Source: Desulfobaccales bacterium
GTDB lineage: Bacteria > Desulfobacterota > Desulfobaccia > Desulfobaccales > 0-14-0-80-60-11
NCBI GenBank assembly: GCA_044451265.1
Contig: JBIOJX010000002.1
Coordinates: 1 to 54,645 of the forward strand
Direction of reading: 5' to 3'
DNA: 54,645 nt
The notes below the pieces were generated by a model. It did no database searches and was not told where the DNA came from. It worked only from the letters and a program-made list of their open reading frames with translations. The position numbers and the translations under genes are program-made. Shown in pieces: positions 3,129 to 15,965 of this stretch (within the stretch, counting starts at the first letter, position 1; every line of letters starts with the position of its first letter).

Positions 3129-5807
3129 ATGAAAAGAATTAGTGCTTTGATACTGGGTTTGTTGCTGAGCGCGGTTTTCACTTTGCCGGCTGGGGCCGGG
3201 ACCCTGACAGGCAACAAATTTTTTTATAAGCCAAGTCTGGGAGCCCGCGGCGACACCGAGAAAAAGACCTTTGATGCCGGCCTGGATCGAATCGACGCCC
3301 GCCTGGGCAAAGAAATTTGGGTGGGAGATCCGAACTATGGCACTACCCTACAGGATGCCATTACCGCCATCGGGAGTTCCCCGGCCATCCTACGCATTCC
3401 GGTCGGCTCCTGGGCCGTGGCCAAGGGCACGGTCATCCCCTCTAATGTTACCCTGAAGTTTGAAAACGGCGGCGTGCTTGATGTTTCCGGCCTCCTGGAC
3501 GCCCCTATTGAGGCCATGACCTCGGAGACGGCCTGCAAGGTCACCGTGACCAATCACGGTTTGCAGACCGGGAATTACGTCATTTTCTACAACATCCAGC
3601 AATGCTACGTTTCCGACAACACCCATAGTGCCACCCATGCCAACGAGTGGAGTAACAACAATGAGTACCTTTATCAGGTTACGGTAGTTGACGCCAATAA
3701 CTTCACGGTCCCGATTAACTCTAGCACTTATCACGCCTACAACGCCTCCACCGATCCGGGCAGAGTCTGCACGCCGTTGCAAATTCTTGGGCATATTGAC
3801 GCCGGGAAACGAAAAATCTTTAATATCAAGGCCCCCTGTCAAGTCAAGTTTACTAATAATTATAGTTCCTATAATGTCAATGACCACAAATCACAGATGG
3901 ATGTTTACCCGGAATGGTTTGGGGCGGTAGGCGACGGCCGCACCACTGACGACCTGCTGGCCCTCGACGCCAGTTTTCACGCCCTGAAGTATTACGACCT
4001 GGCGGTGGGGACCATCCATCTGTCTAACTTTTACGGAGTATCGAACACCTGGAGCCTGAACGAGATCGCCAAATCATCCATAGGAAATTTATACGTCATC
4101 GGCAATGGCCGCAACAACTGCGGCCTCGTGGGATTGGTGCCCTCAGCCGGGACCGGCTGCGACGGCAAGCCGGTGATCGAGGCCATCGCCGCGGCTAATT
4201 TGCGCTTTAAGGGATTTGGCATCTACGGCACTTCCAAGCATACCTGGGAAACGCAACCTCCCGGTGCTCCGAGTGTCGGTTTGCTGCTGGGGGCGTCGCA
4301 GACCTCAATAAATGGGGCTGACAGCATTTTTGACGACATGTATTTCTACGGCTGGTTTAAATATGGCTGGGTAATGAACCGGGGCCATGCGCAATCTACC
4401 TTTAACAATCAAGAAGGTGAAGTCTATGCCTGGTACGATGGAGTCACCCCCACCTACGCCTTTAATTACTTCTTCGGAGCCGGAGACCGCCCCCTGATCT
4501 GGCCCGCCCTGGTGCCTACCAACGACGCCTGGAATACCTGGGCACCCAACCGTGATGTCAAAGATACGGTGTGTAATATTATTAAGACGGTTACTCATGG
4601 AACCATGGCACCGGGAAATGCCTGCATCTATCAGGATAAGGCTGGCCCACAGTTGTCAGGCATCCTTTGTGGTGCTGTCCATGATTATTTTGTTTATTGC
4701 TGCAATGGTCTTGTGGATATTGTTGAAAGTGGCGGCGATGGTCACGGGGCGATTGCTGGTGTTTATGTCTGTAGTGATAGTGGAGGTTCAGGCTATCCTC
4801 TCTGCACTTCTAAAGTAAGGATAGATACCGTTGGCAATACCGTTGCTAATGGTATCTTTTTAATGACCGATGCCTATACTACATTGATCAACTCGAAGGT
4901 CTCTTATATCTTTGGGAATAACGGCTATAAAATTCAACTTGGAGCAGGTATTAGTTATAGCAGGTTTGAAAACCTCTGGAGCAACCTAACCTCATTCACC
5001 GTAGCCGGAGAAGTGCGGGGAAGCTACATCGAAGTCCCGGAGAGTTGCGCAAACTTTAACATCGTTACAGGTGCCGACTCCGGCACTATTGTTGTGCGCC
5101 AAGGGCCTTATTACTATGGCGGCAGACAAACTACCATTGCCGGTAACTTGCACTTGGGGATGCCTGATGTCACTACCGTACCCACCTTGACCCTGACGCC
5201 TTATAAGATGACCTGGGCGGCAGCCGCGCCCACCACGGGAAGTTGGCCTCAAGGTTCGGTAATCTGGAAAATCGGGGCGGCGGCGGGCAGTTCGCCCGGA
5301 TGGTTCTGCAACCTGGACAACAGCTGCGGGACACTGAACAGCGGGGCCACCACCGGCAGTATCACCACCGGCACGAAACTATTAACCGTAACCTCTGTCA
5401 CTGGTTTGAAGATTGGCGACTTCATCGATGTCGTCGCCGATGCCGGGGGAAATGCGGTGAGCAAGGGGCGGGTGGTAAACATTGACGCCACGGGCATGGT
5501 AGTGACCCTGGCGGCTAACGCCACAGCCACCGCCACTGCCAAGGCGGTCAGTTATCATAATGAGACCACGGCGGCCGCCTTTAGTCCGATGCCCCCCACC
5601 GGGGCCCGCAACTCCGGGGTCACCGGGACCATTGCCACCGGCACGGCCGTCACTCACGGCCTGGGTGTTGCTCCGACTAAGGTCTTGCTGACCTCGGTTG
5701 ATGGTGTGCCCACCGGGATTTACCCCGGTACCTTTGGCACGTCCACCTTTGTGATCAATTTTGCCGGCGGCGGCTCCCATGCCTTCTATTGGGAAGCCAT
5801 CCAATAA
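3129..5807 (+). CDS. Secreted right-handed beta-helix protein (pectate-lyase-superfamily / tailspike-like), putative polysaccharide depolymerase
   Basis: There is a signal peptide, MKRISALILGLLLSAVFTLPAGAG. The motif YPEWFGAVGDGRTTDDLLALDASF resembles the Pectate_lyase_3 N-terminal motif. The middle is long and Gly/Asn/Thr-rich. The C-terminal GSWPQGSVIWKIGAAAGSSPGWFC motif resembles tail-fibre C-termini. A purine-rich SD (gggggcgaggag) precedes the ATG. Confidence 0.6.
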   Translation: MKRISALILGLLLSAVFTLPAGAGTLTGNKFFYKPSLGARGDTEKKTFDAGLDRIDARLGKEIWVGDPNYGTTLQDAITAIGSSPAILRIPVGSWAVAKGTVIPSNVTLKFENGGVLDVSGLLDAPIEAMTSETACKVTVTNHGLQTGNYVIFYNIQQCYVSDNTHSATHANEWSNNNEYLYQVTVVDANNFTVPINSSTYHAYNASTDPGRVCTPLQILGHIDAGKRKIFNIKAPCQVKFTNNYSSYNVNDHKSQMDVYPEWFGAVGDGRTTDDLLALDASFHALKYYDLAVGTIHLSNFYGVSNTWSLNEIAKSSIGNLYVIGNGRNNCGLVGLVPSAGTGCDGKPVIEAIAAANLRFKGFGIYGTSKHTWETQPPGAPSVGLLLGASQTSINGADSIFDDMYFYGWFKYGWVMNRGHAQSTFNNQEGEVYAWYDGVTPTYAFNYFFGAGDRPLIWPALVPTNDAWNTWAPNRDVKDTVCNIIKTVTHGTMAPGNACIYQDKAGPQLSGILCGAVHDYFVYCCNGLVDIVESGGDGHGAIAGVYVCSDSGGSGYPLCTSKVRIDTVGNTVANGIFLMTDAYTTLINSKVSYIFGNNGYKIQLGAGISYSRFENLWSNLTSFTVAGEVRGSYIEVPESCANFNIVTGADSGTIVVRQGPYYYGGRQTTIAGNLHLGMPDVTTVPTLTLTPYKMTWAAAAPTTGSWPQGSVIWKIGAAAGSSPGWFCNLDNSCGTLNSGATTGSITTGTKLLTVTSVTGLKIGDFIDVVADAGGNAVSKGRVVNIDATGMVVTLAANATATATAKAVSYHNETTAAAFSPMPPTGARNSGVTGTIATGTAVTHGLGVAPTKVLLTSVDGVPTGIYPGTFGTSTFVINFAGGGSHAFYWEAIQ

Positions 5808-6375: not shown

Positions 6376-6663
6376 ATGGCAACCGTATCTTTGACAGCAA
6401 AAATTTCTATCCCGAAGCATGTCCTGGTCCGGGTTTTTCAAAACGAATCGGTTCTCCTCAATTTGGACAGTGAATTTTATCATGGCCTGGATGACGTGGG
6501 AACCCACATGTGGCAGGCGGTCACCCAGTCCAAGACCATCCAGGATGCCTACGACTTGCTGCAGTCGGAGTTCGAAGTCGACCCCGCAACTTTGAAAAAA
6601 GATCTGAACGATTTCATCGAAAGGCTGGTGCAGCGTGGGCTGGTGGAGATCCACGAGCGCTAA
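6376..6663 (+). CDS. Lasso peptide biosynthesis B1 protein (PqqD-family RiPP recognition element)
   Basis: The sequence LLNLDSEFYHGLDDVGTHMWQAV...TIQDAYDLLQSEFEVDPATLKKDLNDFIERLVQRGLVEI matches the PqqD/RRE pattern. The ATG at 6376 is preceded by AAGGAAG. The ORF-track start at 6274 adds an unlikely extension. Confidence 0.85.
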   Translation: MATVSLTAKISIPKHVLVRVFQNESVLLNLDSEFYHGLDDVGTHMWQAVTQSKTIQDAYDLLQSEFEVDPATLKKDLNDFIERLVQRGLVEIHER

Positions 6664-7135
6664 CTGGCACAAGTTTTGGAGGCTGGCCCGGCCGGAGAAG
6701 ACTTTGCTGGCCCAAGCTTTCCTGACTCTGCCGCTGATCGCCGTGGGGCTGCTCTGGCCGGGCTTTCGACGCCTGCACGCCTGCTTGGTCAGGTGGCAGC
6801 GCCCAGCTGGCCATCCGGGACCTGAGCCGGGGGCCGGACCATGGCCGCAAGCCTGCGTCACGGCCCGCCTGGTGCGGATCGCGGCGCGCTACAGCCTGAT
6901 TCGCCTCAACTGCCTGCCCAAGTCCCTGGCCCTCTGGTGGTTGCTGCACCGCCAGGGGATCGGCTCTGACCTGCGCATCGGGGTCACTCCCAAGGAAGGT
7001 CGCCTCGAAGCGCATGCCTGGGTGGAATTTCAGGGCGTTCCGCTGAACGATCAGGACGACGTGCACGAACGCTTTGCACCTTTTCATGAAACCATAACGC
7101 CACCGGAAGCGCTGGGCCGCCTGCGCGGCCTCTAG
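6635..7135 (+). CDS. Lasso peptide biosynthesis B2 protein (transglutaminase-like Cys protease, leader peptidase)
   Basis: CLPKSLALWWLLHRQGIGSDLRIGV...LEAHAWVEFQGVPLNDQDD carries the Cys...His...Asp signature of McjB-type B2 proteins. The GTG start overlaps the end of B1 by 29 nt. Confidence 0.85.
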   Translation: MGWWRSTSANWHKFWRLARPEKTLLAQAFLTLPLIAVGLLWPGFRRLHACLVRWQRPAGHPGPEPGAGPWPQACVTARLVRIAARYSLIRLNCLPKSLALWWLLHRQGIGSDLRIGVTPKEGRLEAHAWVEFQGVPLNDQDDVHERFAPFHETITPPEALGRLRGL

Positions 7136-7181
7136 CCAGTTCTGCCCTGTTTAACCCCTGGTTTTCTTTGGTAGGCTGTAA

Positions 7182-8723
7182 ATGGAAATGCGGAAAGAAG
7201 CAGCCCCCCCTTTAGCCCCGGATAGCGGTATTTTCCTGATGGAAAATCATGACGAGGCTTATCGGGTCTGGCGTGAAGCGGGGGTACACGAAAAAATTCT
7301 GGTGCATATCGATGCCCACGATGATCTGGTCTGGAATCCAGATCAGGGCTCCATTAATATTGCCAACTTCATCTGTCCCGCCTTGAAGGAGGGCATGATC
7401 AGGGAAGTCTTTTGGGTGGTCCCTGATCGGACCTGGGAGGATGCCGCCAGCCGCAAGTCTTTGGTACGGCGTTTGCATAAATTATTGGCAAAATACCCCG
7501 GCAAGCCGCATCCCCTCAAAGTGGAAAGAGACCTGATTGCCGGGGCAATTTTGGGGAGGCCCCTGCGGGTGTGCACGTTGCAGAGCCTGCCCCTGATAAG
7601 CGAAAAAGTCCTACTCGATATCGACGTGGATTATCTGGTGATTCCCAAGGCCTGCCACTCCAGCGACCAATATCAGGGACTTCCCTGGTGCTGGCCCGAC
7701 GCCTTAGCGGCCGGGCTCAAGGCCAGGGGTATCCAGGCTGAACTGGTGACCATCGCCTATTCGGTGGAGGGCGGCTACACCCCCTTGCAGTGGAAATACC
7801 TGGGCGATGAAATGGCCCGGCGCCTGGATGGGGTTCAAGATCACGAGCCGTTTCTGCGCGGGATGGCCCTGCTGCGGGAGGGAGCCCAAGCCGAGGCTGG
7901 GGGGAATCTGACCCAGGCGGCGCAAACCTATCTTCAGGCCAGGGAGTTTCTCCCGGACAACCCTGCCCTCGACTTCCGCCTGGCAAACGCTTACGCCGAT
8001 ATGGGGAGACCAACCGACGCCCAGGAGTGCCACCGGCGGGCTCGCGAACTGGACCCCGCTTACGGTACCGCTTATGGCAGCGGCGGGATCTGGTATTACT
8101 GGGACCGGCGCTACCCCGAGGCCGAACAGGAGCACCGGCGCACCCTAATTTTGAATCCGGCAGACGCTTACGCCCATTTCGGCCTGGGACAACTGGCGGT
8201 CCGCCGCAAGCGCTGGCAAGAGGCGGAGGTCTGGCTGGGCCAGTCCTTGGAACTTGACGACCATCTGGTGGATGCCTGGCGCACGTTGGGAAAGGTTCTG
8301 GCGAAGCGAGGTCGCGGTCCGGAGGCCATTGAGGCCTACGAAAGATCGCTGCACTTGAGCCTACGGGGCTATCTGCCCATAGGGGCTCCCATCTTTTCCC
8401 ACAATGACCGCGGCCTGCTCCTGGACCCCGATCATTTCCAGGTGCATACGATTTTGGGTAGCCTTTATGCTTTACAGGGAAAGATTGATGCTGCTATAAT
8501 TTCGCTGCGTATGGGTATAGCGGCTGGCGACAATGGCTGTATGGTCCGAGTCTCCCTGGCCCGGCTTTACTTGAAAAAACGGCAGTGGAACGAGGTTGGA
8601 CCGGAACTCTGGGCCGGCATCAAAGTGATCCCTCGGGATATCGGAAACGCACTCCAGCGAGCCTGGTATCACCTTCGTCGAGCTTTTAAAGCAAAATACC
8701 GGGTGCTAAAGGGCGCAGGATGA
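7182..8723 (+). CDS. UPF0489-domain (arginase/deacetylase-fold) protein fused to C-terminal TPR repeats
   Basis: The N-terminal motifs ENHDEAY, LVHIDAHDDL, LLDIDVDYL and LVTIAYS match the UPF0489 pattern, which resembles the DAHxD and DxD metal motifs of ureohydrolases. The C-terminal half has repeated A-x-Y-x-x-A/L-E-L-D/N-P TPR-like units. The stop overlaps the cyclase start (ATGA). Confidence 0.65.
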   Translation: MEMRKEAAPPLAPDSGIFLMENHDEAYRVWREAGVHEKILVHIDAHDDLVWNPDQGSINIANFICPALKEGMIREVFWVVPDRTWEDAASRKSLVRRLHKLLAKYPGKPHPLKVERDLIAGAILGRPLRVCTLQSLPLISEKVLLDIDVDYLVIPKACHSSDQYQGLPWCWPDALAAGLKARGIQAELVTIAYSVEGGYTPLQWKYLGDEMARRLDGVQDHEPFLRGMALLREGAQAEAGGNLTQAAQTYLQAREFLPDNPALDFRLANAYADMGRPTDAQECHRRARELDPAYGTAYGSGGIWYYWDRRYPEAEQEHRRTLILNPADAYAHFGLGQLAVRRKRWQEAEVWLGQSLELDDHLVDAWRTLGKVLAKRGRGPEAIEAYERSLHLSLRGYLPIGAPIFSHNDRGLLLDPDHFQVHTILGSLYALQGKIDAAIISLRMGIAAGDNGCMVRVSLARLYLKKRQWNEVGPELWAGIKVIPRDIGNALQRAWYHLRRAFKAKYRVLKGAG

Positions 8724-10615
8724 GTGGCATCGTGGGCTTCATCAATCAGGCCGGACAGCCCGTAGAACGGGAGTTGCTGGGGCGCCTGACCACATCCCTC
8801 GCTTTCCGCGGCCCCGATGACCACGGCGTCTGGACTGAAGGCCACGTGGGCCTGGGCCACACCATGCTCCGCACCACCTTGGAGTCCGAGCGCGAGCAGC
8901 AGCCCTGCAGCCTGGACGGCAAGGTGTGGATCACCGCGGATGCCCGCATCGACGGCCGGGCCGACCTCATCCGTGAGCTGGAAGGCCGGGGCTGCACGAA
9001 CCTGAAGAATGTTCCCGATGTCGAACTTATCCTCCATGCCTACCAAGTTTGGGGGGACGATTGCGTCCAGCACCTCATCGGCGACTTCGCCTTTGCCATC
9101 TGGGACGGACCCCGGCGCCGGCTGTGGTGCGCTCGGGACCACCTGGGCGTCAAGCCCTTCTTTTATGCCGACGCGGGCCGGAGCCTGGTGTTCAGCAATA
9201 CCCTGAACTGTATCCGGCGGCATCCGGACATCTCCGACCGGCTCAACGACCTGGCCATCGCCGATTTCCTCCTTTTTGACAACAACCAGGACCCGGCTAC
9301 CACCACCTTTGCCGACATCCAGCGCCTCCCTGCCGCGCACTCCCTGACCTGGCAGCCAGGCGGCGCCGTTAAGGTGCGGCGCTACTGGAGCCTGCCTCAA
9401 GAAGGCGTCGTGCACTACCCGCGCCAGCGTGATTATGTGGAGCGTTTCCAGGAGTTGCTGCGCCAGGCCGTGGCCGACCGCTTGCGCACCGACAAGGTCG
9501 GCGTCCTCCTGAGCGGCGGGCTGGACTCTCCCATGGTAACGGCCATCGCCCGGGACCTCCTGGCCGCCCGCTCTCCGCGCTTTGACCTGCAGTGCTATAC
9601 CATGGTATTCGACCACTTGATTCCGGATGAAGAACGTTATTATGCCGGGGAGGTGGCCAGGCATCTGCATGTCCCGGTCGAGTTTCTGCCGCAGGATGAC
9701 TATGCTTTTTACGGAGGCCAAACAACCATGCGCCGGCCGGAGCCGCGCCACGACCCCCGGGGAGAGGCCAGGACCGAATTGGTAAATCTGGTCGCCAGCC
9801 GGAACCGCTTGGTGTTGACCGGCGAGGGTGGCGACGAGATTCTGTACCCCTCCAAGGCTTATATCTACCGATTGGCCAAGAGGCTGCGTTTGGCCCCTCT
9901 AGCTGCGGGAGTGGGGCGGTGCCTCTTTTTTTACGGCCATGTGCCCCAGGTCGGTTTCAAGACGGCCCTGGGGCGGTGGCGCCAGGGCCGCAGCCGACCC
10001 GGAGAAGGATTCCCGGCGTGGCTCAACCCGGGCTTTGCGGCCCGGCTGGAGCTGCCGACCCGGTGGGAGCGTTTCAATAAAGGGTCTTGGTCAGAGCACC
10101 CGGTGCGCCCCGAGGCCTGTGCCTTCCTCCGCAACCCTCTTATCCAGATGGTTTTTGAGGATTATGACCCAGGGACTTCGGGGGCGCCGGTAGAATTTCG
10201 TCATCCTCTGCTGGACGTGCGCCTGCTCAGTTATGCCCTGAGCCTGCCGCCGCTCCCCTGGTGCGTGGATAAGATCATGCTGCGGGAACTGGGCAAAGGG
10301 CGCTTGCCGGAGGTGGTCCGCCGCCGTCCCAAGGCGCCTTTGGCTGAGTATCCCGAACTGGCTATGCTTCGTCGGCCCGGTTCCCGGTGGCTGGATGACT
10401 TTGCGCCCTGCGAGCAGTTGGGCGCCTATGTCCGGCGCGCCGCGGTGCCCCCGGTGAGCGCCGAGACCGACCAGGAGCGGTTGTGGATGAACCTGCGTCC
10501 TCTCAGTCTCAATTACTGGCTGCACAATCTAAAGGCAGATTTTCCTGATATATTGTCGATAAACCCGAGTTTAACCATGTATGAAGCAACTGCAACTACA
10601 GGGGAAAGATCATGA
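8720..10615 (+). CDS. Lasso peptide isopeptide-bond-forming cyclase (asparagine synthetase-like, C protein)
   Basis: The N-terminal MSGIVGF Ntn-amidotransferase-like start and the SGGLDS PP-loop motif are present. The gene sits in an operon between B1/B2 and the precursor gene. Confidence 0.85.
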   Translation: MSGIVGFINQAGQPVERELLGRLTTSLAFRGPDDHGVWTEGHVGLGHTMLRTTLESEREQQPCSLDGKVWITADARIDGRADLIRELEGRGCTNLKNVPDVELILHAYQVWGDDCVQHLIGDFAFAIWDGPRRRLWCARDHLGVKPFFYADAGRSLVFSNTLNCIRRHPDISDRLNDLAIADFLLFDNNQDPATTTFADIQRLPAAHSLTWQPGGAVKVRRYWSLPQEGVVHYPRQRDYVERFQELLRQAVADRLRTDKVGVLLSGGLDSPMVTAIARDLLAARSPRFDLQCYTMVFDHLIPDEERYYAGEVARHLHVPVEFLPQDDYAFYGGQTTMRRPEPRHDPRGEARTELVNLVASRNRLVLTGEGGDEILYPSKAYIYRLAKRLRLAPLAAGVGRCLFFYGHVPQVGFKTALGRWRQGRSRPGEGFPAWLNPGFAARLELPTRWERFNKGSWSEHPVRPEACAFLRNPLIQMVFEDYDPGTSGAPVEFRHPLLDVRLLSYALSLPPLPWCVDKIMLRELGKGRLPEVVRRRPKAPLAEYPELAMLRRPGSRWLDDFAPCEQLGAYVRRAAVPPVSAETDQERLWMNLRPLSLNYWLHNLKADFPDILSINPSLTMYEATATTGERS

Positions 10616-10749
10616 AACCGACCAAAAAAGAACGGCAGGCTTATCACACTCCTCAGGTGATGGATTACGGCAATGTCAAACAAATCACTATGGCCATTGC
10701 GGGTAGCGGGAGCCAGGACTCTCCGGCAAGAGCCAAAACTCATGCGTAG
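10612..10749 (+). CDS. Lasso peptide precursor (45 aa): MKPTKKERQAYHTPQVMDYGNVKQITMAIAGSGSQDSPARAKTHA
   Basis: The gene is absent from the ORF track because it is shorter than 60 aa. Its ATG overlaps the cyclase stop (ATGA). The leader matches the lasso motif YxxPxLxxxGxxxxxTx, using Y11, P14, V16, G20 and T26. The predicted core is AIAGSGSQDSPARAKTHA, with an acidic acceptor at core position 9. Confidence 0.8.
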   Translation: MKPTKKERQAYHTPQVMDYGNVKQITMAIAGSGSQDSPARAKTHA

Positions 10750-10779
10750 GAATTACGAGGCCCCCGAGCAGCGCTCATA

Positions 10780-11805
10780 ATGGGTGAGTCGTGGTTTTAT
10801 GAGGCTTTCGGCTTGCGGCTCAAGTCCGACCGGGCCATTCCCGGTCTGGTGGCCCAGCCGGAGCCGGCGGCGGTTGATTTGGAGGTATGCCAGGAAGGCC
10901 TGGCGGGATGGTGGAGCCGACTTCTGGAGATGCCGCAAGAATTGTGGCATTTCGGCTTTACGGACGAAAACCGCGGCGAACCCGGCTACAGAATGTGGCT
11001 GGTGGCCGGGGGGGAATACTACCGGCTGCGATACCGAGACGGCTGCCAATTCGTCATGAACCGGGCGTGTACGCGGCTTTGGGTCTCGGGCCCCGAGGGT
11101 GCGACCCCGGAATATCTCGCCACCTACCTGTTGGGCCCGGTTTTGGGGATTCTCCTGCGTTTGCGGGGTACGCCCTGTCTGCACGGCAGCGCCGTGGCCG
11201 TGGGAGCGCAAGCCCTGGGCCTTCTTGGCCCACCGGGCGCCGGGAAATCCACCACCGCCGCGGCCTTTGCCTGTCTCGGCTATCCGGTGCTCACCGATGA
11301 TATCATCGCCCTCAAAGAAGAAGGCGGTGAGTACCTGGCCTTCCCGGGCAATCCGAGACTTTGCTTGTGGCCGCGGTCGGTTGGACTGCTGTTCAACTCC
11401 CCGGAAGCCTTGCCACTCCTGATTCCCGAGAACTCATTAGAACCAGATTGGGATAAACGTTGTCTGGACCTCACCGCGCCGGGTTACCATTATCAATCCC
11501 AGCCGCTGCCTTTGAAAGCGCTATATTTTCTAGGGGAGCGCCGCGGCGATGGCAATCCGCCGGTAACGGCGGTGACCGGCCAGAAGGCCTTGCTAAACCT
11601 AATGGCCAACGCTTATGGCAGCAACATCCTGGACCCTCCCCGGCGGGCGCAAGAATTTGAGGTTCTGGGGCGTTTGCTTACCAAAATCCGCTTGCGCCGA
11701 GTCACGCCGTGCCCCGGGGCTGACCATCTCCGCAGTCTCTGCGAAACGATCCTCTCGGACTTTCACTCCCTGACCGCGGAAATTCCTGCACGGGAGGATG
11801 CCTAA
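10780..11805 (+). CDS. HPr-kinase-related kinase (lasso-cluster kinase type)
   Basis: LHGSAVAVGAQALGLLGPPGAGKSTTAAAFACLGYPVLTDD carries a P-loop in the context typical of the HprK C-terminal domain. The N-terminal YEAFGLRLKSD pattern is seen in HprK-related kinases of RiPP loci. Confidence 0.75.
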   Translation: MGESWFYEAFGLRLKSDRAIPGLVAQPEPAAVDLEVCQEGLAGWWSRLLEMPQELWHFGFTDENRGEPGYRMWLVAGGEYYRLRYRDGCQFVMNRACTRLWVSGPEGATPEYLATYLLGPVLGILLRLRGTPCLHGSAVAVGAQALGLLGPPGAGKSTTAAAFACLGYPVLTDDIIALKEEGGEYLAFPGNPRLCLWPRSVGLLFNSPEALPLLIPENSLEPDWDKRCLDLTAPGYHYQSQPLPLKALYFLGERRGDGNPPVTAVTGQKALLNLMANAYGSNILDPPRRAQEFEVLGRLLTKIRLRRVTPCPGADHLRSLCETILSDFHSLTAEIPAREDA

Positions 11806-11816
11806 TAGGTGTACAC

Positions 11817-13019
11817 ATGCCTTTCTCTTATACTTTCAGCGGTTTTGGCAAAATAATTTTCGATGATGCTTACCGCCTGGGATACCAGCAGGCCATCCGA
11901 CAGGTCGTCATGCCTGGCGACGTGGTGCTGGATCTCGGCTGCGGCAGCGGCCTCTTAGGGCTCCTGGCCTGTAAATGCGGCGCCCGCCGGGTCTACGCCA
12001 TCGAAGTGAGTGACATCATCCATCTGGCCGAGAACTTGGCTGTCGCTAATGGTTACGCCGACCGCATCGAGTACATTAAGGCCCTGTCAACCCAGGTAAG
12101 CCTGCCGGAACGGGTTGACGTCATGATCTCTGACCTGCGCGGCGTGCTGCCTTTCTTTGGAAGACACATCCCGGCGGTCGTGGATGCCCGCAAGCGTTTT
12201 CTGGCTCCGGGAGGCCGTATGCTCCCTCAGCGGGACCTGGTGTGGGCGGCGTTATTGGAATCGCCTAAAGCTTATAATGCCTTAAGTTCACCCTGGGATG
12301 GCCATGGTTATGGGTTAGACTTGAGAGCAGCCCGTGATTTGGCGGTCAACAATTGTTATGTGGTCCGCCCCAAAGCGGGAGGGTTGCTGGCGGCACCAAG
12401 AACTTTGACGGTCCTGGATTATGATGCGGTGGAAAGCCCGGATGTACAGGGCAAATTAAGCTGGGAAGTATCGCGGGCGGGAGTCGGCCATGGATTGGTC
12501 CTGTGGTTCGATTCCATCCTGGCACCGGGGGTGGAGATTGCCAATGCCCCCGGTTCTTTTGAAGAACCGAACAGGCTGATCTATGGAAACTTTTTATGTC
12601 CCTGGCCGGAACCCGTGAACTTGGCAGCGGGGGATGTGGTATCGGTAGACCTGGCCGCCAACCTGGTGGGAGATGAATATATCTGGCGCTGGGACACCCG
12701 CATCCTGGACCAGGGCCAACCGGGGCGTCTAAAGGGTGACTTTCGACAATCCACCCTTTTGAGTGCCATCGTATCCCCAGCCAAATTGCGACGCATTGCC
12801 CACAGCCACGTGCCCGATCTGAGCCGGGACGGCCAGATCGACCGGCTCATCCTGGGGTTGATGGACGGCAACAACTCCCTGGGGGAGATTGCCCGGCAGG
12901 TGGCGGCGGAGTTCCCGGCCCGCTTTTCCGGTGAGGGCGAGGCCCTGGCCCGGGTGGGGAAGTTGTCCCTGGAGTACGGCCGTCCCCTGGATAATAAATA
13001 TTTATTAAAAGATATCTAA
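11817..13019 (+). CDS. PRMT-like class I SAM-dependent methyltransferase with a C-terminal PqqD/RRE-like domain
   Basis: Motif I is VVLDLGCGSGLLGLLACKCGARRVYAIE. VDVMISDLRG sits at the position of the PRMT double-E loop, and GHGLVLWFDS resembles the PRMT beta-barrel. The C-terminus RLILGLMDGNNSLGEIARQVAAEFPARF...ALARVGKLSLEYG resembles a winged-helix RRE. Confidence 0.6.
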   Translation: MPFSYTFSGFGKIIFDDAYRLGYQQAIRQVVMPGDVVLDLGCGSGLLGLLACKCGARRVYAIEVSDIIHLAENLAVANGYADRIEYIKALSTQVSLPERVDVMISDLRGVLPFFGRHIPAVVDARKRFLAPGGRMLPQRDLVWAALLESPKAYNALSSPWDGHGYGLDLRAARDLAVNNCYVVRPKAGGLLAAPRTLTVLDYDAVESPDVQGKLSWEVSRAGVGHGLVLWFDSILAPGVEIANAPGSFEEPNRLIYGNFLCPWPEPVNLAAGDVVSVDLAANLVGDEYIWRWDTRILDQGQPGRLKGDFRQSTLLSAIVSPAKLRRIAHSHVPDLSRDGQIDRLILGLMDGNNSLGEIARQVAAEFPARFSGEGEALARVGKLSLEYGRPLDNKYLLKDI

Positions 13020-13143
13020 ACCTCTCGGATATCCAGGCTTTCCAAACACCCGCCTCATCACCGGGGACTCGAGAGACGTCCTCAGGTTGGCCGGGGCTTT
13101 CTGTAAGTCTCCATCACTAGATCGGTTGGTTAGCCAAACAAAT

Positions 13144-14301
13144 TTACTCCGGGTTCCAGCTTGGGGCTGAGGAGAACAGCGTCCGGAGGGCTTGGCGGAG
13201 GAAGCGGGCTCGGTCAGGCTCCCCGTAGACCGCCAGCAGATACTCGGGCTGGGGCCAGAGCAAGGCTGAGACGTAAAAGACCCAATCGTGCAGGCGGCGA
13301 TGGCGGTATAGGGCCGCGAAATGCGGCGTGAAATACCCGAGAGAGTGGTTTAAAACCAGCCTTTCGGCCCAGGATGGGCGATACCCGGATAGATCGTGCA
13401 GGATTGCTCCAGGGATTAGGTGGGGAAACACTGGCGCCAGCTCCCGGAGAATAAGATAAACCGGCGCCTGACATTGGAACCGAATTAATTCCTCCTGCAG
13501 GGTGGGCCAGTGCAGGGGCAGCGTGCGCAGGGTCCGGCCCAGGTCGACGATCTGCATGGCCCCGTGAAACTCCTCAAAGGTGTGCAGGGCTGAGTGAATC
13601 AAGGCATGTTCCGGACAGAGAACTTTAACCGGTTGACCCTGATAATTCCAGGGGAGGGCCATTTCCTCCAGTCGGTGGAAGGGGAGCGTATAAAAATTAT
13701 CCACCCCGCTGAGGTGCCAATGGAGATCCACCAGTAAAAGACCACCTGGGGGCGGGTTGAAGTGTAATTCATTTCGAAAAAGTTCCCGAAATCCCGGGCG
13801 GGGATCCGTGCATTGAGACTGGAGCGTGAGGCCCAATTCCTCCAGAATCGATTTAACTCGGGAGACGTGTCCGGGAGAGATGAGCAGGTCCAGGTCGGCC
13901 ATGGGCCTGACGGCTGATTCCCCGTACAACCGTATCCGAAGATCCGCGCCCTTGAGGAGGATACTCCCGATCCCGGCCTGGTTGAGAGCCTGAAGCACGC
14001 GTAATACTTCTTGATCTTCCCGGGCGGTGGCCCTCAGGGCCACGATATAATCCTGGCGCAAATGTTCCAATAATGAGTGCTGCAGATGTTTTTCCAGGCC
14101 CTGGCGCATCACCTCCCGGTAGAGCAATGGGGTTAGCCGGTGATGGTGCAGTTGTTCCAGGGTTGGGAGGTCTAAACTGGCGAGAATAACTTCTCCATGG
14201 GGCACGTTATGGAGTTTATCTGCCAGCAGCAGGGGCCAAAAGCCTTGGATGAGGGTAATTGCCTCTTGCCAATCATAAAATTGCTTTTTCCTGAGCATCA
14301 A
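13144..14301 (-). CDS. Nucleotidyltransferase-family protein (NTP_transf_5 / PF14907-like)
   Basis: LLKGADLRIRLYGESAVRPMADLDLLISP is the family signature. This family recurs in kinase-associated lasso and other RiPP loci. The gene is convergent with the operon. Confidence 0.7.
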   Translation of the reverse strand: MMLRKKQFYDWQEAITLIQGFWPLLLADKLHNVPHGEVILASLDLPTLEQLHHHRLTPLLYREVMRQGLEKHLQHSLLEHLRQDYIVALRATAREDQEVLRVLQALNQAGIGSILLKGADLRIRLYGESAVRPMADLDLLISPGHVSRVKSILEELGLTLQSQCTDPRPGFRELFRNELHFNPPPGGLLLVDLHWHLSGVDNFYTLPFHRLEEMALPWNYQGQPVKVLCPEHALIHSALHTFEEFHGAMQIVDLGRTLRTLPLHWPTLQEELIRFQCQAPVYLILRELAPVFPHLIPGAILHDLSGYRPSWAERLVLNHSLGYFTPHFAALYRHRRLHDWVFYVSALLWPQPEYLLAVYGEPDRARFLRQALRTLFSSAPSWNPE

Positions 14302-14876: not shown

Positions 14877-15965
14877 ATGAATACATTATTTTTCAGAATA
14901 AAGAGACATTCTTTATTAAGGCTACCTGGGTTATGGACCATAATTTTCGTGTTGATCTTGGTGGGCGCTTGTGCCGGGCCTTCCCGGCAACCTGCTCCAG
15001 ACCAAATGGTTTCCCAGGTTCAAGCCGAGGCTCGCAAAAATAAGCTTCAAGATCAGCTCCTGACCCAGATAGGGCGCGTCACCTTGATGAGTTACCATGA
15101 CTATAAAGTAGGGCCCGAAGATTTACTGGAAATATCTTTTTTTGGGCAGGATGACCTGAGCGGGGAGGTTCGGGTCAATGGCCAGGGAAAAATCAGCATG
15201 TCTTTGGTGGGAGAAGTGCCAGTGGCTGGCCTGTCTCCCCGAGAAATTGAGGACAGATTGTCTAATTTGTACAAGGAAGGCCAATTTTTCACCAACCCTC
15301 AGATCAAGGTCCTGGTTAAGGAGTATCGGCACCAGCGGGTGGTGGTTTCCGGGGCCGTATCCAAACCGGGCGCTTATGAAATGATCGGCCCGCGTACCCT
15401 CTTGGAGGTCATCGGTCAGGCCGGGGGCCTGAGCGAGAATGCCACTGACGTAATTCACGTGATTCGCTCCCAGGATGCCTCCGAGCGTACCGCGGCTTTG
15501 AAGGTGGCTGCTAAGGGACCTGCTGCGGCCGGAGCGCAGACCATCGTCATCGACCTGCGCCGTCTGCTGATGGATGGCGCCATGGAATTGAACCTCCCCA
15601 TAAAAAATGGCGACGTAGTTTTTGTGCCTTTTGCCCAAAATGCTTACATCCTGGGAGCGGTTAGAAAGCCCGGAAACGTGCCGGTCAAAGACAAGTTGAC
15701 CGTAGCGCAAGCCATTGCCATGGCCGGCGGGCTTGACCTTAACCTGGCCTCGAACAATGTAACCGTGGTGCGCTTTGATGATAAGGGGCAGCGCATTGAC
15801 CTCAAATATAATCTGAAAAACGTCATACAGGCGGGGGGGGCCGAGGTTCTGGTAAAACAGAATGATATCATTTTTGTGGAGGAGAGCGGCATTAGAAGAG
15901 CCTTATATGATTTCAAGAACTTGTCCCCCCTTGGCCAATTTTCTGTCCCCTTAGCAACTTTTTAA
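14877..15965 (+). CDS. wza: Outer-membrane polysaccharide export protein (Wza/OPX family, Poly_export + SLBB domains)
   Basis: YKVGPEDLLEISFFGQDDLSGEVRVNGQGKISMSLVGEVPVAGLSPREIEDRL is the Poly_export signature. An N-terminal lipoprotein-like signal (LVGAC) and repeated SLBB-like segments are present. Confidence 0.85.
   Translation: MNTLFFRIKRHSLLRLPGLWTIIFVLILVGACAGPSRQPAPDQMVSQVQAEARKNKLQDQLLTQIGRVTLMSYHDYKVGPEDLLEISFFGQDDLSGEVRVNGQGKISMSLVGEVPVAGLSPREIEDRLSNLYKEGQFFTNPQIKVLVKEYRHQRVVVSGAVSKPGAYEMIGPRTLLEVIGQAGGLSENATDVIHVIRSQDASERTAALKVAAKGPAAAGAQTIVIDLRRLLMDGAMELNLPIKNGDVVFVPFAQNAYILGAVRKPGNVPVKDKLTVAQAIAMAGGLDLNLASNNVTVVRFDDKGQRIDLKYNLKNVIQAGGAEVLVKQNDIIFVEESGIRRALYDFKNLSPLGQFSVPLATF

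Follow-up and report, generated by a model that had tools for sequence, protein, structure and literature searches.

A lasso-peptide gene cluster encoding a predicted TPR-fused peptide arginase and a PRMT-fold methyltransferase in a Desulfobaccales genome

Gene content and organization of the lasso-peptide cluster

The DNA analyzed here is a stretch of 54,645 nucleotides from a Desulfobaccales bacterium (assembly GCA_044451265.1, contig JBIOJX010000002.1, positions 1 to 54,645; hereafter the window). Eight open reading frames (ORFs), seven co-directional and one convergent, occupy positions 6376-14301, and sequence comparisons confirm this region as a genuine split-B lasso-peptide gene cluster (Table 1). 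The B1 product is the recognition element (RRE) of a pathway for peptides that are made on ribosomes and modified after translation (RiPPs), while the accessory genes encode a putative peptide arginase fused to a tetratricopeptide repeat (TPR) domain and a methyltransferase (MT) with the fold of protein arginine methyltransferases (PRMTs), together with a kinase (K) and a nucleotidyltransferase (N). An earlier note on this DNA had read these genes as one lasso operon, tightly packed for coupled translation and of the kinase/nucleotidyltransferase type, to which two tailoring genes are added. This description is supported, and the ORF listing places all eight genes at the coordinates that the note had given.

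Table 1. Genes of the lasso-peptide cluster, with product assignments based on homology
Gene and assigned product	Coordinates	Strand	Length (aa)
B1, PqqD-type RRE, leader-peptide binding	6376-6663	+	95
B2, transglutaminase-like leader peptidase	6635-7135	+	166
Putative peptide arginase (PF12640/OspR family) fused to TPR	7182-8723	+	513
C, Asn-synthetase-like lasso cyclase, isopeptide bond formation	8720-10615	+	631
A, precursor, MKPTKKERQAYHTPQVMDYGNVKQITM leader followed by AIAGSGSQDSPARAKTHA core	10612-10749	+	45
K, HprK-related peptide kinase	10780-11805	+	341
MT, PRMT-fold S-adenosylmethionine (SAM)-dependent methyltransferase	11817-13019	+	400
N, PF14907 nucleotidyltransferase (PsmN-like), convergent	13144-14301	-	385

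The lasso claim of the earlier note was made to depend on B1, B2 and C, all three of which reach significance against profile hidden Markov models. B1 matches Pfam PqqD (PF05402) with an E-value of 3.2e-16 (59.8 bits, cut-off 23.4) and NCBIfam lasso_PqqD_Bac with E=1.8e-12, and its ATG start at 6376 agrees with the N-termini of homologues. B2 is matched by Pfam Transglut_core3 (PF13471) at E=1.6e-21 and by NCBIfam NF033537 lasso_biosyn_B2 with 85.4 bits (cut-off 33), and its sequence contains NCLPKS and AHAWVE, the Cys and His of which are, along with an Asp, candidate catalytic residues. C contains Asn_synthase (PF00733, E=7e-32) as well as GATase_7 and GATase_6 matches and an SGGLDS PP-loop; its top NCBIfam model is the lasso isopeptide cyclase lass_lactam_cya (E=2e-107), at 360 bits under the strict 525-bit cut-off of that model.

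The precursor gene begins within the ATGA overlap with the C stop codon. Its leader carries the YxxP motif as Y11-H-T-P14 and a Thr at position -2 (T26), and the 18-residue core has Ala1 and Asp9 and ends in ...AKTHA. A sub-threshold match to NCBIfam NF033528 lasso_cyano (E=3e-5) was also found. In two syntenic relatives, L003 and L120, the leader is near-identical and the cores differ, and the leader pattern recurs in approximately 40 precursors of related loci that were extracted by a leader-motif regular expression, with the Asp or Glu mostly at core position 8-9. One related precursor, L002:14129-14281, has a canonical leader followed by the core TTKRTGPPAVSDPTYSVNRTR, the first acidic residue of which is at position 12 and not at 7-9; this may reflect an unusual ring size or a defective cluster.

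The packing of the seven co-directional genes is as the earlier note described, with a 29-nt overlap of B1 and B2, an ATGA junction at 8720 and another at 10612, a gap of 30 nt before the kinase gene and one of 11 nt before MT; a further junction that it did not list, between B2 and the arginase-TPR gene, is a gap of 46 nt. All eight ORFs are intact and full length relative to their homologues, with catalytic motifs preserved. A promoter scan returned 7 matches where 4.4 were expected from shuffling, which is barely above expectation, while terminator matches were fewer than expected from shuffling and the scan gave no convincing terminator internal to the operon. The best sigma-70-like match of the region, at 8471-8500 on the positive strand (11/12, TTTACA-18-TATAAT with extended TG), lies inside the arginase-TPR gene approximately 220 nt before the start of C. 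It may serve C-A-K-MT as an internal promoter, or the match may be fortuitous.

The arginase-TPR protein and arginine in the precursor core

The gene between B2 and C encodes an N-terminal arginase domain (approximately residues 1-225) followed by a TPR domain (approximately residues 226-513), in which Pfam finds TPR repeats. The protein matches the NCBIfam pept_arginase FlmR/OhkR family (NF052474) with E=1.9e-14, and the sole significant match of its N-terminal 220 residues in the PDB is 8BRP, the structure of the peptide arginase OspR (E=6.6e-9 with the single sequence, E=1.8e-18 with a profile of homologues). The earlier note had called this gene product a UPF0489 arginase-fold protein. The family stands, and can be read more narrowly as that of peptide arginases converting Arg to ornithine (Orn), although the Pfam UPF0489 model itself scores below threshold. 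An AlphaFold2 (AF2) model was obtained with a predicted local distance difference test score (pLDDT) of 92 and a predicted TM-score of 0.89. The top 50 Foldseek matches of the full model in the PDB are all TPR proteins, indicating that the repeats mask the arginase domain in this comparison.

Three signature motifs, EEH(N/H)EAF, DXHXD and LDIDLDYFSC, are described for OspR, in which His12, Asp39, His41, Asp43, Asp165 and Asp167 are the ligands of two Mn ions (OspR papers). The window protein has ENH23DEAY, D44-A-H46-D-D48 and LLD146-I-D148-V-D150-Y in register with these motifs, and all six Mn ligands are matched in the alignment. Alignments A1 and A3 show no variation at D44, H46, D48, D146, D148 and D150, and conservation of 90% or more at H23; in alignment A4, which adds N-terminally incomplete sequences, D146, D148 and D150 alone stay invariant. 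The arginase-TPR protein represents a divergent subfamily of the PF12640 peptide arginases. Because the binuclear Mn ligands are intact and the domain is homologous to OspR, it is predicted to turn Arg13, the single Arg of the window core, into Orn, and its TPR domain is probably the part to which the precursor or the lasso is held.

The likeness to characterized PF12640 arginases (OspR of landornamide, FlmR, OhkR and PbsE) extends to the three motifs, the six Mn-binding residues and the location in a RiPP cluster with an Arg-containing core. Unlike OspR, a protein of 309 aa with its own dimerization domain, the window protein carries a fused TPR domain of approximately 290 residues, and unlike the known members it is linked to lasso precursors. 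The precursor contexts known for peptide arginases are NHLP, Nif11, SCIFF, three orphan types and biphenomycins, with lasso peptides not among them (2025 peptide-arginase paper).

A protein search with the arginase-TPR sequence retrieved 72 proteins at E up to 0.001, mostly homologues of the N-terminal domain, and a metagenome scan retrieved 152 arginase relatives, of which 80 loci were taken and probed by tblastn with the window proteins. When contigs of 4 kb and longer are counted, the close clade (at least 44% identity) has B2, C, K or MT nearby in 22 of 26, the lasso genes usually lying approximately 0.3-4 kb from the arginase, and the distant clade (under 40% identity) has one of them in 4 of 29. 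The arginase of L003, a Desulfobaccales metagenome-assembled genome (MAG), is 81% identical and the gene order is that of the window; the arginase of L120 is 88% identical in a syntenic locus, and the gene tables of L121, L002, the P0010 locus and L001 fit the same lasso-adjacent pattern. The earlier note allowed that the UPF0489 and methyltransferase genes might adjoin the lasso genes by chance. This is ruled out by the neighborhood analysis, with both genes kept next to lasso genes in homologous loci, in the 22 close-clade contigs just given and in 24 of 34 loci for MT. The close, lasso-linked clade of TPR-fused peptide arginases is rare.

Where the arginase is present, the precursor cores are also richer in Arg. 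Ten of the 11 cores of arginase-positive loci contain Arg, with an Arg frequency of 9.4%, whereas in arginase-negative lasso loci 9 of the 22 cores do, with an Arg frequency of 2.8%. A one-sided Fisher test gives p=0.007, for loci that are not phylogenetically independent; the L121 core, SSGIAQRESRGGSRVD, also has Arg, bringing the count to 11 of 12 arginase-positive loci. Arginase-linked cores carry their Arg at position 4 of the ring, at position 7 of the ring or in the tail, a spread that fits the positional tolerance for Arg reported for OspR (2025 peptide-arginase paper). As sequence correlations, these co-occurrences are supportive of an action on the core, not decisive.

Beyond the lasso-linked clade, the same architecture was found in a different setting. 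At L042:7603-16175, a distant-clade arginase-TPR gene (9786-11429) has genes for a PqqD RRE, for three radical SAM enzymes and for an ABC-2 transporter as its neighbors; judged by its gene content, this locus looks like a second, non-lasso RiPP family with a TPR-fused arginase. Many other distant-clade loci have a PqqD match and neither B2 nor C. A close homologue is also found away from lasso genes: at L122:3731-5152, the neighbors of an arginase and TPR pair are ruvAB, fabH and queA, and no lasso genes were found close by.

An alternative is that a lasso peptide is made but is not modified by the arginase-TPR protein, which would instead serve as a non-catalytic TPR scaffold or chaperone for the B/C machinery, or act as a ureohydrolase on some other guanidino compound, for example free arginine, agmatine or a component of exopolysaccharide (EPS). 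Several observations lean this way or weigh against the tailored product proposed below. The protein scores far under the NF052474 cut-off (53.8 against 350 bits) and under that of Pfam UPF0489 (19.7 against 27 bits), Asn22 takes the position of OspR Glu11, and the cluster abuts EPS genes. Furthermore, the core detected in L014, an arginase-positive locus, has no Arg, the L122 homologue (49% identical) lies outside any lasso context, and Arg is present in 9 of 22 arginase-free cores, making the correlation a partial one among loci with shared phylogeny. The conservation of all six Mn ligands across the arginase clade is however unexpected for a pure scaffold, and the embedding of the gene between B2 and C with an ATGA overlap, the Arg enrichment of arginase-positive cores, and the finding of the distant clade beside PqqD and radical SAM genes, a RiPP setting of another kind, all argue for peptide tailoring. 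The PF12640 enzymes named in the arginase literature likewise all act on peptides. Weighing both sides, a non-modifying role for the arginase-TPR protein is considered unlikely, although it deserves more weight than the other alternatives discussed below.

Kinase, nucleotidyltransferase and methyltransferase

The earlier note had identified an HprK-like kinase, an assignment that holds at the profile level and not in Pfam, where Hpr_kinase_C gave no match at E up to 0.01. NCBIfam HprK_rel_A matches the protein at E=5e-7. A single-sequence search of the PDB returned P-loop noise alone, with an HPr kinase at E=0.39, while the top PDB matches of a profile built from 20 kinase homologues (alignment A5) are HPr kinases: 3tqf (2.8e-6), 1jb1 (1e-5) and 1ko7 (3.4e-5). 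Lasso kinases share a His-Lys-Asp-Asp motif (PMC9266682), matched in the window protein by H135, K156, D173 and D174; H135, K156 and D174 are invariant among homologues, and position 173 is Asp or Glu.

Characterized lasso kinases phosphorylate a C-terminal Ser (reviews including PMC9266682). No such Ser is present in the window precursor, and in related cores a [K/R/M]-T motif is found, with few exceptions, 1-4 residues short of the C-terminus. As this motif is conserved near the end of the core and a C-terminal Ser is lacking, Thr16 can be put forward as the phospho-acceptor, and the kinase likely acts on this conserved Thr near the C-terminus, unlike the paeninodin kinase with its Ser.

The convergent gene was correctly described as a nucleotidyltransferase of the PF14907 type, with a match to NTP_transf_5 at E=2e-42 (145.9 bits, cut-off 31.2) and an ADLDLL (DxD) motif readable in the sequence. 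Its orientation differs among relatives, the homologue being divergent upstream of B1 in L003 and co-directional after MT in L005. In the pseudomycoidin pathway, the peptide's phosphoserine receives one or two hexoses through the homologous PsmN (PMC6993621).

The combination of kinase and nucleotidyltransferase places the cluster in the paeninodin/pseudomycoidin subtype (PadeK, ThcoK, PsmK, PsmN). Shared with those clusters are the split B1/B2, the cyclase C, a precursor gene adjoining C, an HprK-related kinase with the His-Lys-Asp-Asp motif and the PF14907 nucleotidyltransferase, as well as a nine-membered ring, formed by Ala1-Glu9 in pseudomycoidin according to the literature and predicted for Ala1-Asp9 in the window. 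Unlike paeninodin and pseudomycoidin, the window core ends in ...KTHA with the conserved Thr 1-4 residues from the end in place of a C-terminal Ser, the D exporter is absent from the window, and the peptide arginase-TPR and PRMT-fold genes are added. The hosts also differ, being uncultured Desulfobacterota, Acidobacteriota and others here as opposed to Firmicutes for paeninodin and pseudomycoidin.

The methyltransferase comprises a type I PRMT fold (residues 1 to approximately 315) and a C-terminal three-helix domain (residues 337-393). Its profile matches PDB structures of PRMT2, PRMT8, PRMT1, PRMT6 and CARM1, with E-values from 1e-46 to 1e-40, and the top 50 Foldseek matches of its AF2 model (pLDDT 83) are all type I PRMTs (E approximately 1e-25, target TM-score 0.71-0.85). 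The enzyme shares with type I PRMTs (PRMT1, 2, 6, 8 and CARM1) the Rossmann domain and the beta-barrel, with a profile-to-PDB E-value of 4e-46, and the SAM motifs, and differs from them in its additional C-terminal helical domain, its bacterial origin, and its location in lasso clusters, often with Arg-free cores. The earlier note had proposed an RRE-bearing, PRMT-like methyltransferase. The PRMT fold is borne out by profile and structure comparisons, while the signs of an RRE are faint: PqqD is the top Pfam match of two of five MT C-terminal domains at sub-threshold E-values of 0.09-0.14 (Pfam searched at E up to 10), hhalign of the C-terminal domain against the B1 profile gives a probability of 0.3%, and residues 337-393 are modeled as three helices with no beta-sheet. 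A PADLOC scan of the accessory proteins gave one generic methyltransferase-domain match (mad2), and a reading of these genes as a defense system was set aside.

Despite its fold, the enzyme probably has a target other than arginine, as judged from active-site residues and associated cores. The first acidic residue of the double-E loop is Asp106, the position of the second Glu is Gly115 and is variable in the MT family, and the position of the THW loop reads L-I-Y. In 13 of 22 MT-containing, arginase-free lasso loci, none of the detected cores has an Arg. These two lines of evidence make arginine an unlikely acceptor, and the assignment as a true arginine methyltransferase is disfavored. A genuine peptidyl-arginine methyltransferase acting on Arg13, in competition or in sequence with the arginase, would be in keeping with a fold and sequence closest to type I PRMTs, with the annotation of homologues as PRMT1 by JGI and with the one Arg in the window core; set against the Arg-free cores and the altered double-E and THW loops, it appears quite improbable. 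The amines of Lys or Orn are candidate acceptors, a basic residue being present in almost all cores with the exception of L110, and phosphate or carboxylate are alternative candidates.

The exception is found in an MT/K lasso cluster of a Burkholderiaceae MAG. L110:8456-8950 encodes two precursors with the cores TGSMAGMEDNNLNSMCNLAQINMTFNMC and SGSMIAMEDGFQNGFCFFANMTGNMC, both without Lys or Arg, both with an NMT motif near the C-terminus, and both ending in ...NMC. These cores argue that the group methylated by MT need not be a basic side chain in every case.

Methyltransferases of this type are numerous, with more than 1151 homologous proteins at 47-59% identity. The MT loci compared were 34, all from MAGs that are species-representative genomes, mostly of Acidobacteriota but also of Binatia, Deltaproteobacteria, Gemmatimonadota, Cyanobacteriota, Chromatiaceae, Burkholderiaceae, Heliobacteriaceae and Trueperaceae, with at least eight lineages overall. 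In the 24 loci mentioned above, C and K lie directly upstream of MT; the usual order is B1-B2-C-A-K-MT, sometimes followed by the nucleotidyltransferase and an ABC (ATP-binding cassette) exporter, and the arginase is present in none of the 34. A 400-aa ORF of L002 that was considered as a further MT homologue is not one. The K-MT lasso module is thus widespread and apparently uncharacterized.

Methylation in lasso pathways is known in two kinds, C-terminal O-methyl esters (StspM/LasF) and aspartimide formation by enzymes of the protein isoaspartyl methyltransferase (PIMT) type (TceM/LihM), according to reviews. The window MT resembles these as a SAM-dependent tailoring enzyme in a lasso cluster; unlike the mitomycin-OMT-like StspM/LasF and the PIMT-like TceM/LihM, it has a PRMT fold and belongs to an unrelated family, and it has no Pfam or NCBIfam match to the isoaspartyl methyltransferase family. 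The lasso modifications listed in reviews are phosphorylation, glycosylation, O-methylation, aspartimide formation, citrullination, acetylation, hydroxylation, epimerization and prenylation, with ornithine not among them, and the words "ornithine" and "arginase" are both absent from a review of interlocked peptides dated June 2026. A full-text literature search found no lasso locus with a PF12640 or PRMT-fold enzyme, many subscription papers being outside its reach. The statement of the earlier note that no characterized lasso locus is known to combine kinase and nucleotidyltransferase genes with UPF0489 and PRMT-like enzymes accordingly agrees with the full-text literature, including the June 2026 review and the 2025 arginase survey. 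The combination is not unique to the window, however, as it recurs as a cluster subtype in metagenomes.

Proposed product, export and genomic surroundings

Taken together, these genes suggest a lasso peptide of the class II type, free of disulfides, whose core of 18 residues undergoes four tailoring steps. By family membership, B1 would bind the YxxP leader, B2 would cut after Thr(-2)-Met(-1), and C would close the ring around the threaded tail by linking the amine of Ala1 with the side chain of Asp9. The TPR-fused arginase would hydrolyze the guanidino group of Arg13 to give ornithine and urea. The kinase may phosphorylate Thr16, by analogy with PadeK, ThcoK and PsmK, and the PF14907 enzyme may decorate the resulting phosphate with a hexose or a nucleotide in the manner of PsmN. 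The PRMT-fold enzyme would methylate an acceptor that is probably not arginine, with Lys15, the new ornithine amine, the phosphate or a carboxylate as candidates. The product may remain cell-associated, or may be exported by a transporter encoded elsewhere. That the cluster makes such a peptide, with all four steps as proposed, is considered reasonably probable.

In addition to the points raised for the arginase, this proposal is weakened by the lack of a C-terminal Ser in a precursor that ends ...AKTHA, by the several candidate acceptors of MT and the L110 cores with neither Lys nor Arg, and by the dependence of all assigned functions on homology, with the chemistry predicted from sequence. 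The absence of an exporter is a further difficulty. The earlier note saw neither an ABC exporter (D) nor a lasso isopeptidase nearby, and the searches agree: tblastn with the L005 exporter found no ABC exporter in the whole 54.6-kb window, and among 30 flanking ORFs of 180 aa or longer Pfam showed no ABC domains and no S9-type peptidase domain, only sugar, EPS and housekeeping genes. Lacking both an exporter and an immunity gene, the cluster could be silent.

Decay or silence of the cluster, with no product made in its host, would also agree with the presence of an exporter in the related loci L005, L097, L103 and L120, with the fragmented state of the close relative L120 and the in-frame stops in its precursor, and with the transposases carried by L002 and L121. 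The eight window ORFs are nevertheless intact, with preserved motifs and tight coupling, and L003, on a 1.68-Mb contig, is syntenic and intact although it has no adjacent ABC gene. Exporter-less lasso clusters are known, which also speaks against decay. A silent or decaying cluster is therefore viewed as a slim prospect beside the production of a tailored lasso peptide.

The state of L120 bears on how its locus is read. The precursor at L120:12123-12300 has a leader ending in ...QITM and a core, SVGAS-GDGW-TKGKNRT, interrupted at both hyphens by in-frame TAG codons, and on the same fragmented contig C is in three pieces and MT in two; assembly error or pseudogenization is the likely cause of these broken genes. 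An exporter with ABC_membrane and ABC_tran domains is encoded at L120:2365-4002, 3.9 kb upstream of B1, where the window has an 892-aa protein and sugar genes, and the exporter is thus variably present even in close relatives.

A broader possibility is that the arginase-positive clusters represent a natural lasso family with ribosomally derived ornithine, installed by a TPR-fused arginase, in which a PRMT scaffold has been repurposed for another acceptor (a Lys or Orn amine, phospho-Thr or carboxylate). This is advanced tentatively, with slightly less than even confidence. If true, the peptide arginase family would extend to the lasso class, and the PRMT-fold enzyme of more than 1000 lasso clusters from uncultured Acidobacteriota, Desulfobacterota and other phyla would represent a new lasso tailoring chemistry. 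Their very high stability makes lasso peptides prized scaffolds in antibiotic development and peptide engineering, and each new tailoring enzyme widens the options; a lasso-dedicated arginase with a TPR substrate-binding module would be a tool for placing a non-proteinogenic cationic residue in threaded peptides. The more widely distributed unknown is the PRMT-fold enzyme, as part of a conserved B1-B2-C-A-K-MT module in many uncultured phyla with an active site that no longer looks arginine-specific. The EPS adjacency and the missing exporter also raise the question of the role of these peptides for their producers.

Upstream of the cluster, the window encodes a phosphomannomutase and an epimerase, and directly upstream, at 3129-5807 on the positive strand, the 892-aa protein, which has a signal-peptide-like N-terminus and no Pfam, NCBIfam or PADLOC match. 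Downstream, Pfam scans verify the EPS locus that the earlier note had placed beside the operon: polysaccharide genes begin at 14877 and continue to approximately 46500, with Wza, Wzz/BY-kinase, a flippase, many glycosyltransferases and sugar-nucleotide genes, and are followed by a chromate transporter, fmt and rsmB. Comparable genes (Wza/Poly_export, Wzz/BY-kinase, flippase and glycosyltransferases) adjoin lasso kinase/MT clusters in the window (14877-46505), in its syntenic relatives (L003:12214-21188 and L120:16594-19637) and in the more distant L005 (1-5512) and L002 (1-9963). This adjacency could be a functional link, through sugar donors or the cell surface, or a coincidence.

An additional gene encoding a TPR-GT41 protein, similar to O-GlcNAc transferases, is located between C and A in L003 (6735-8579) and just upstream of the arginase in L002 (8230-9963). 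The window has no such gene, and its presence in these arginase-positive relatives suggests a further glycosylation variant of the cluster.

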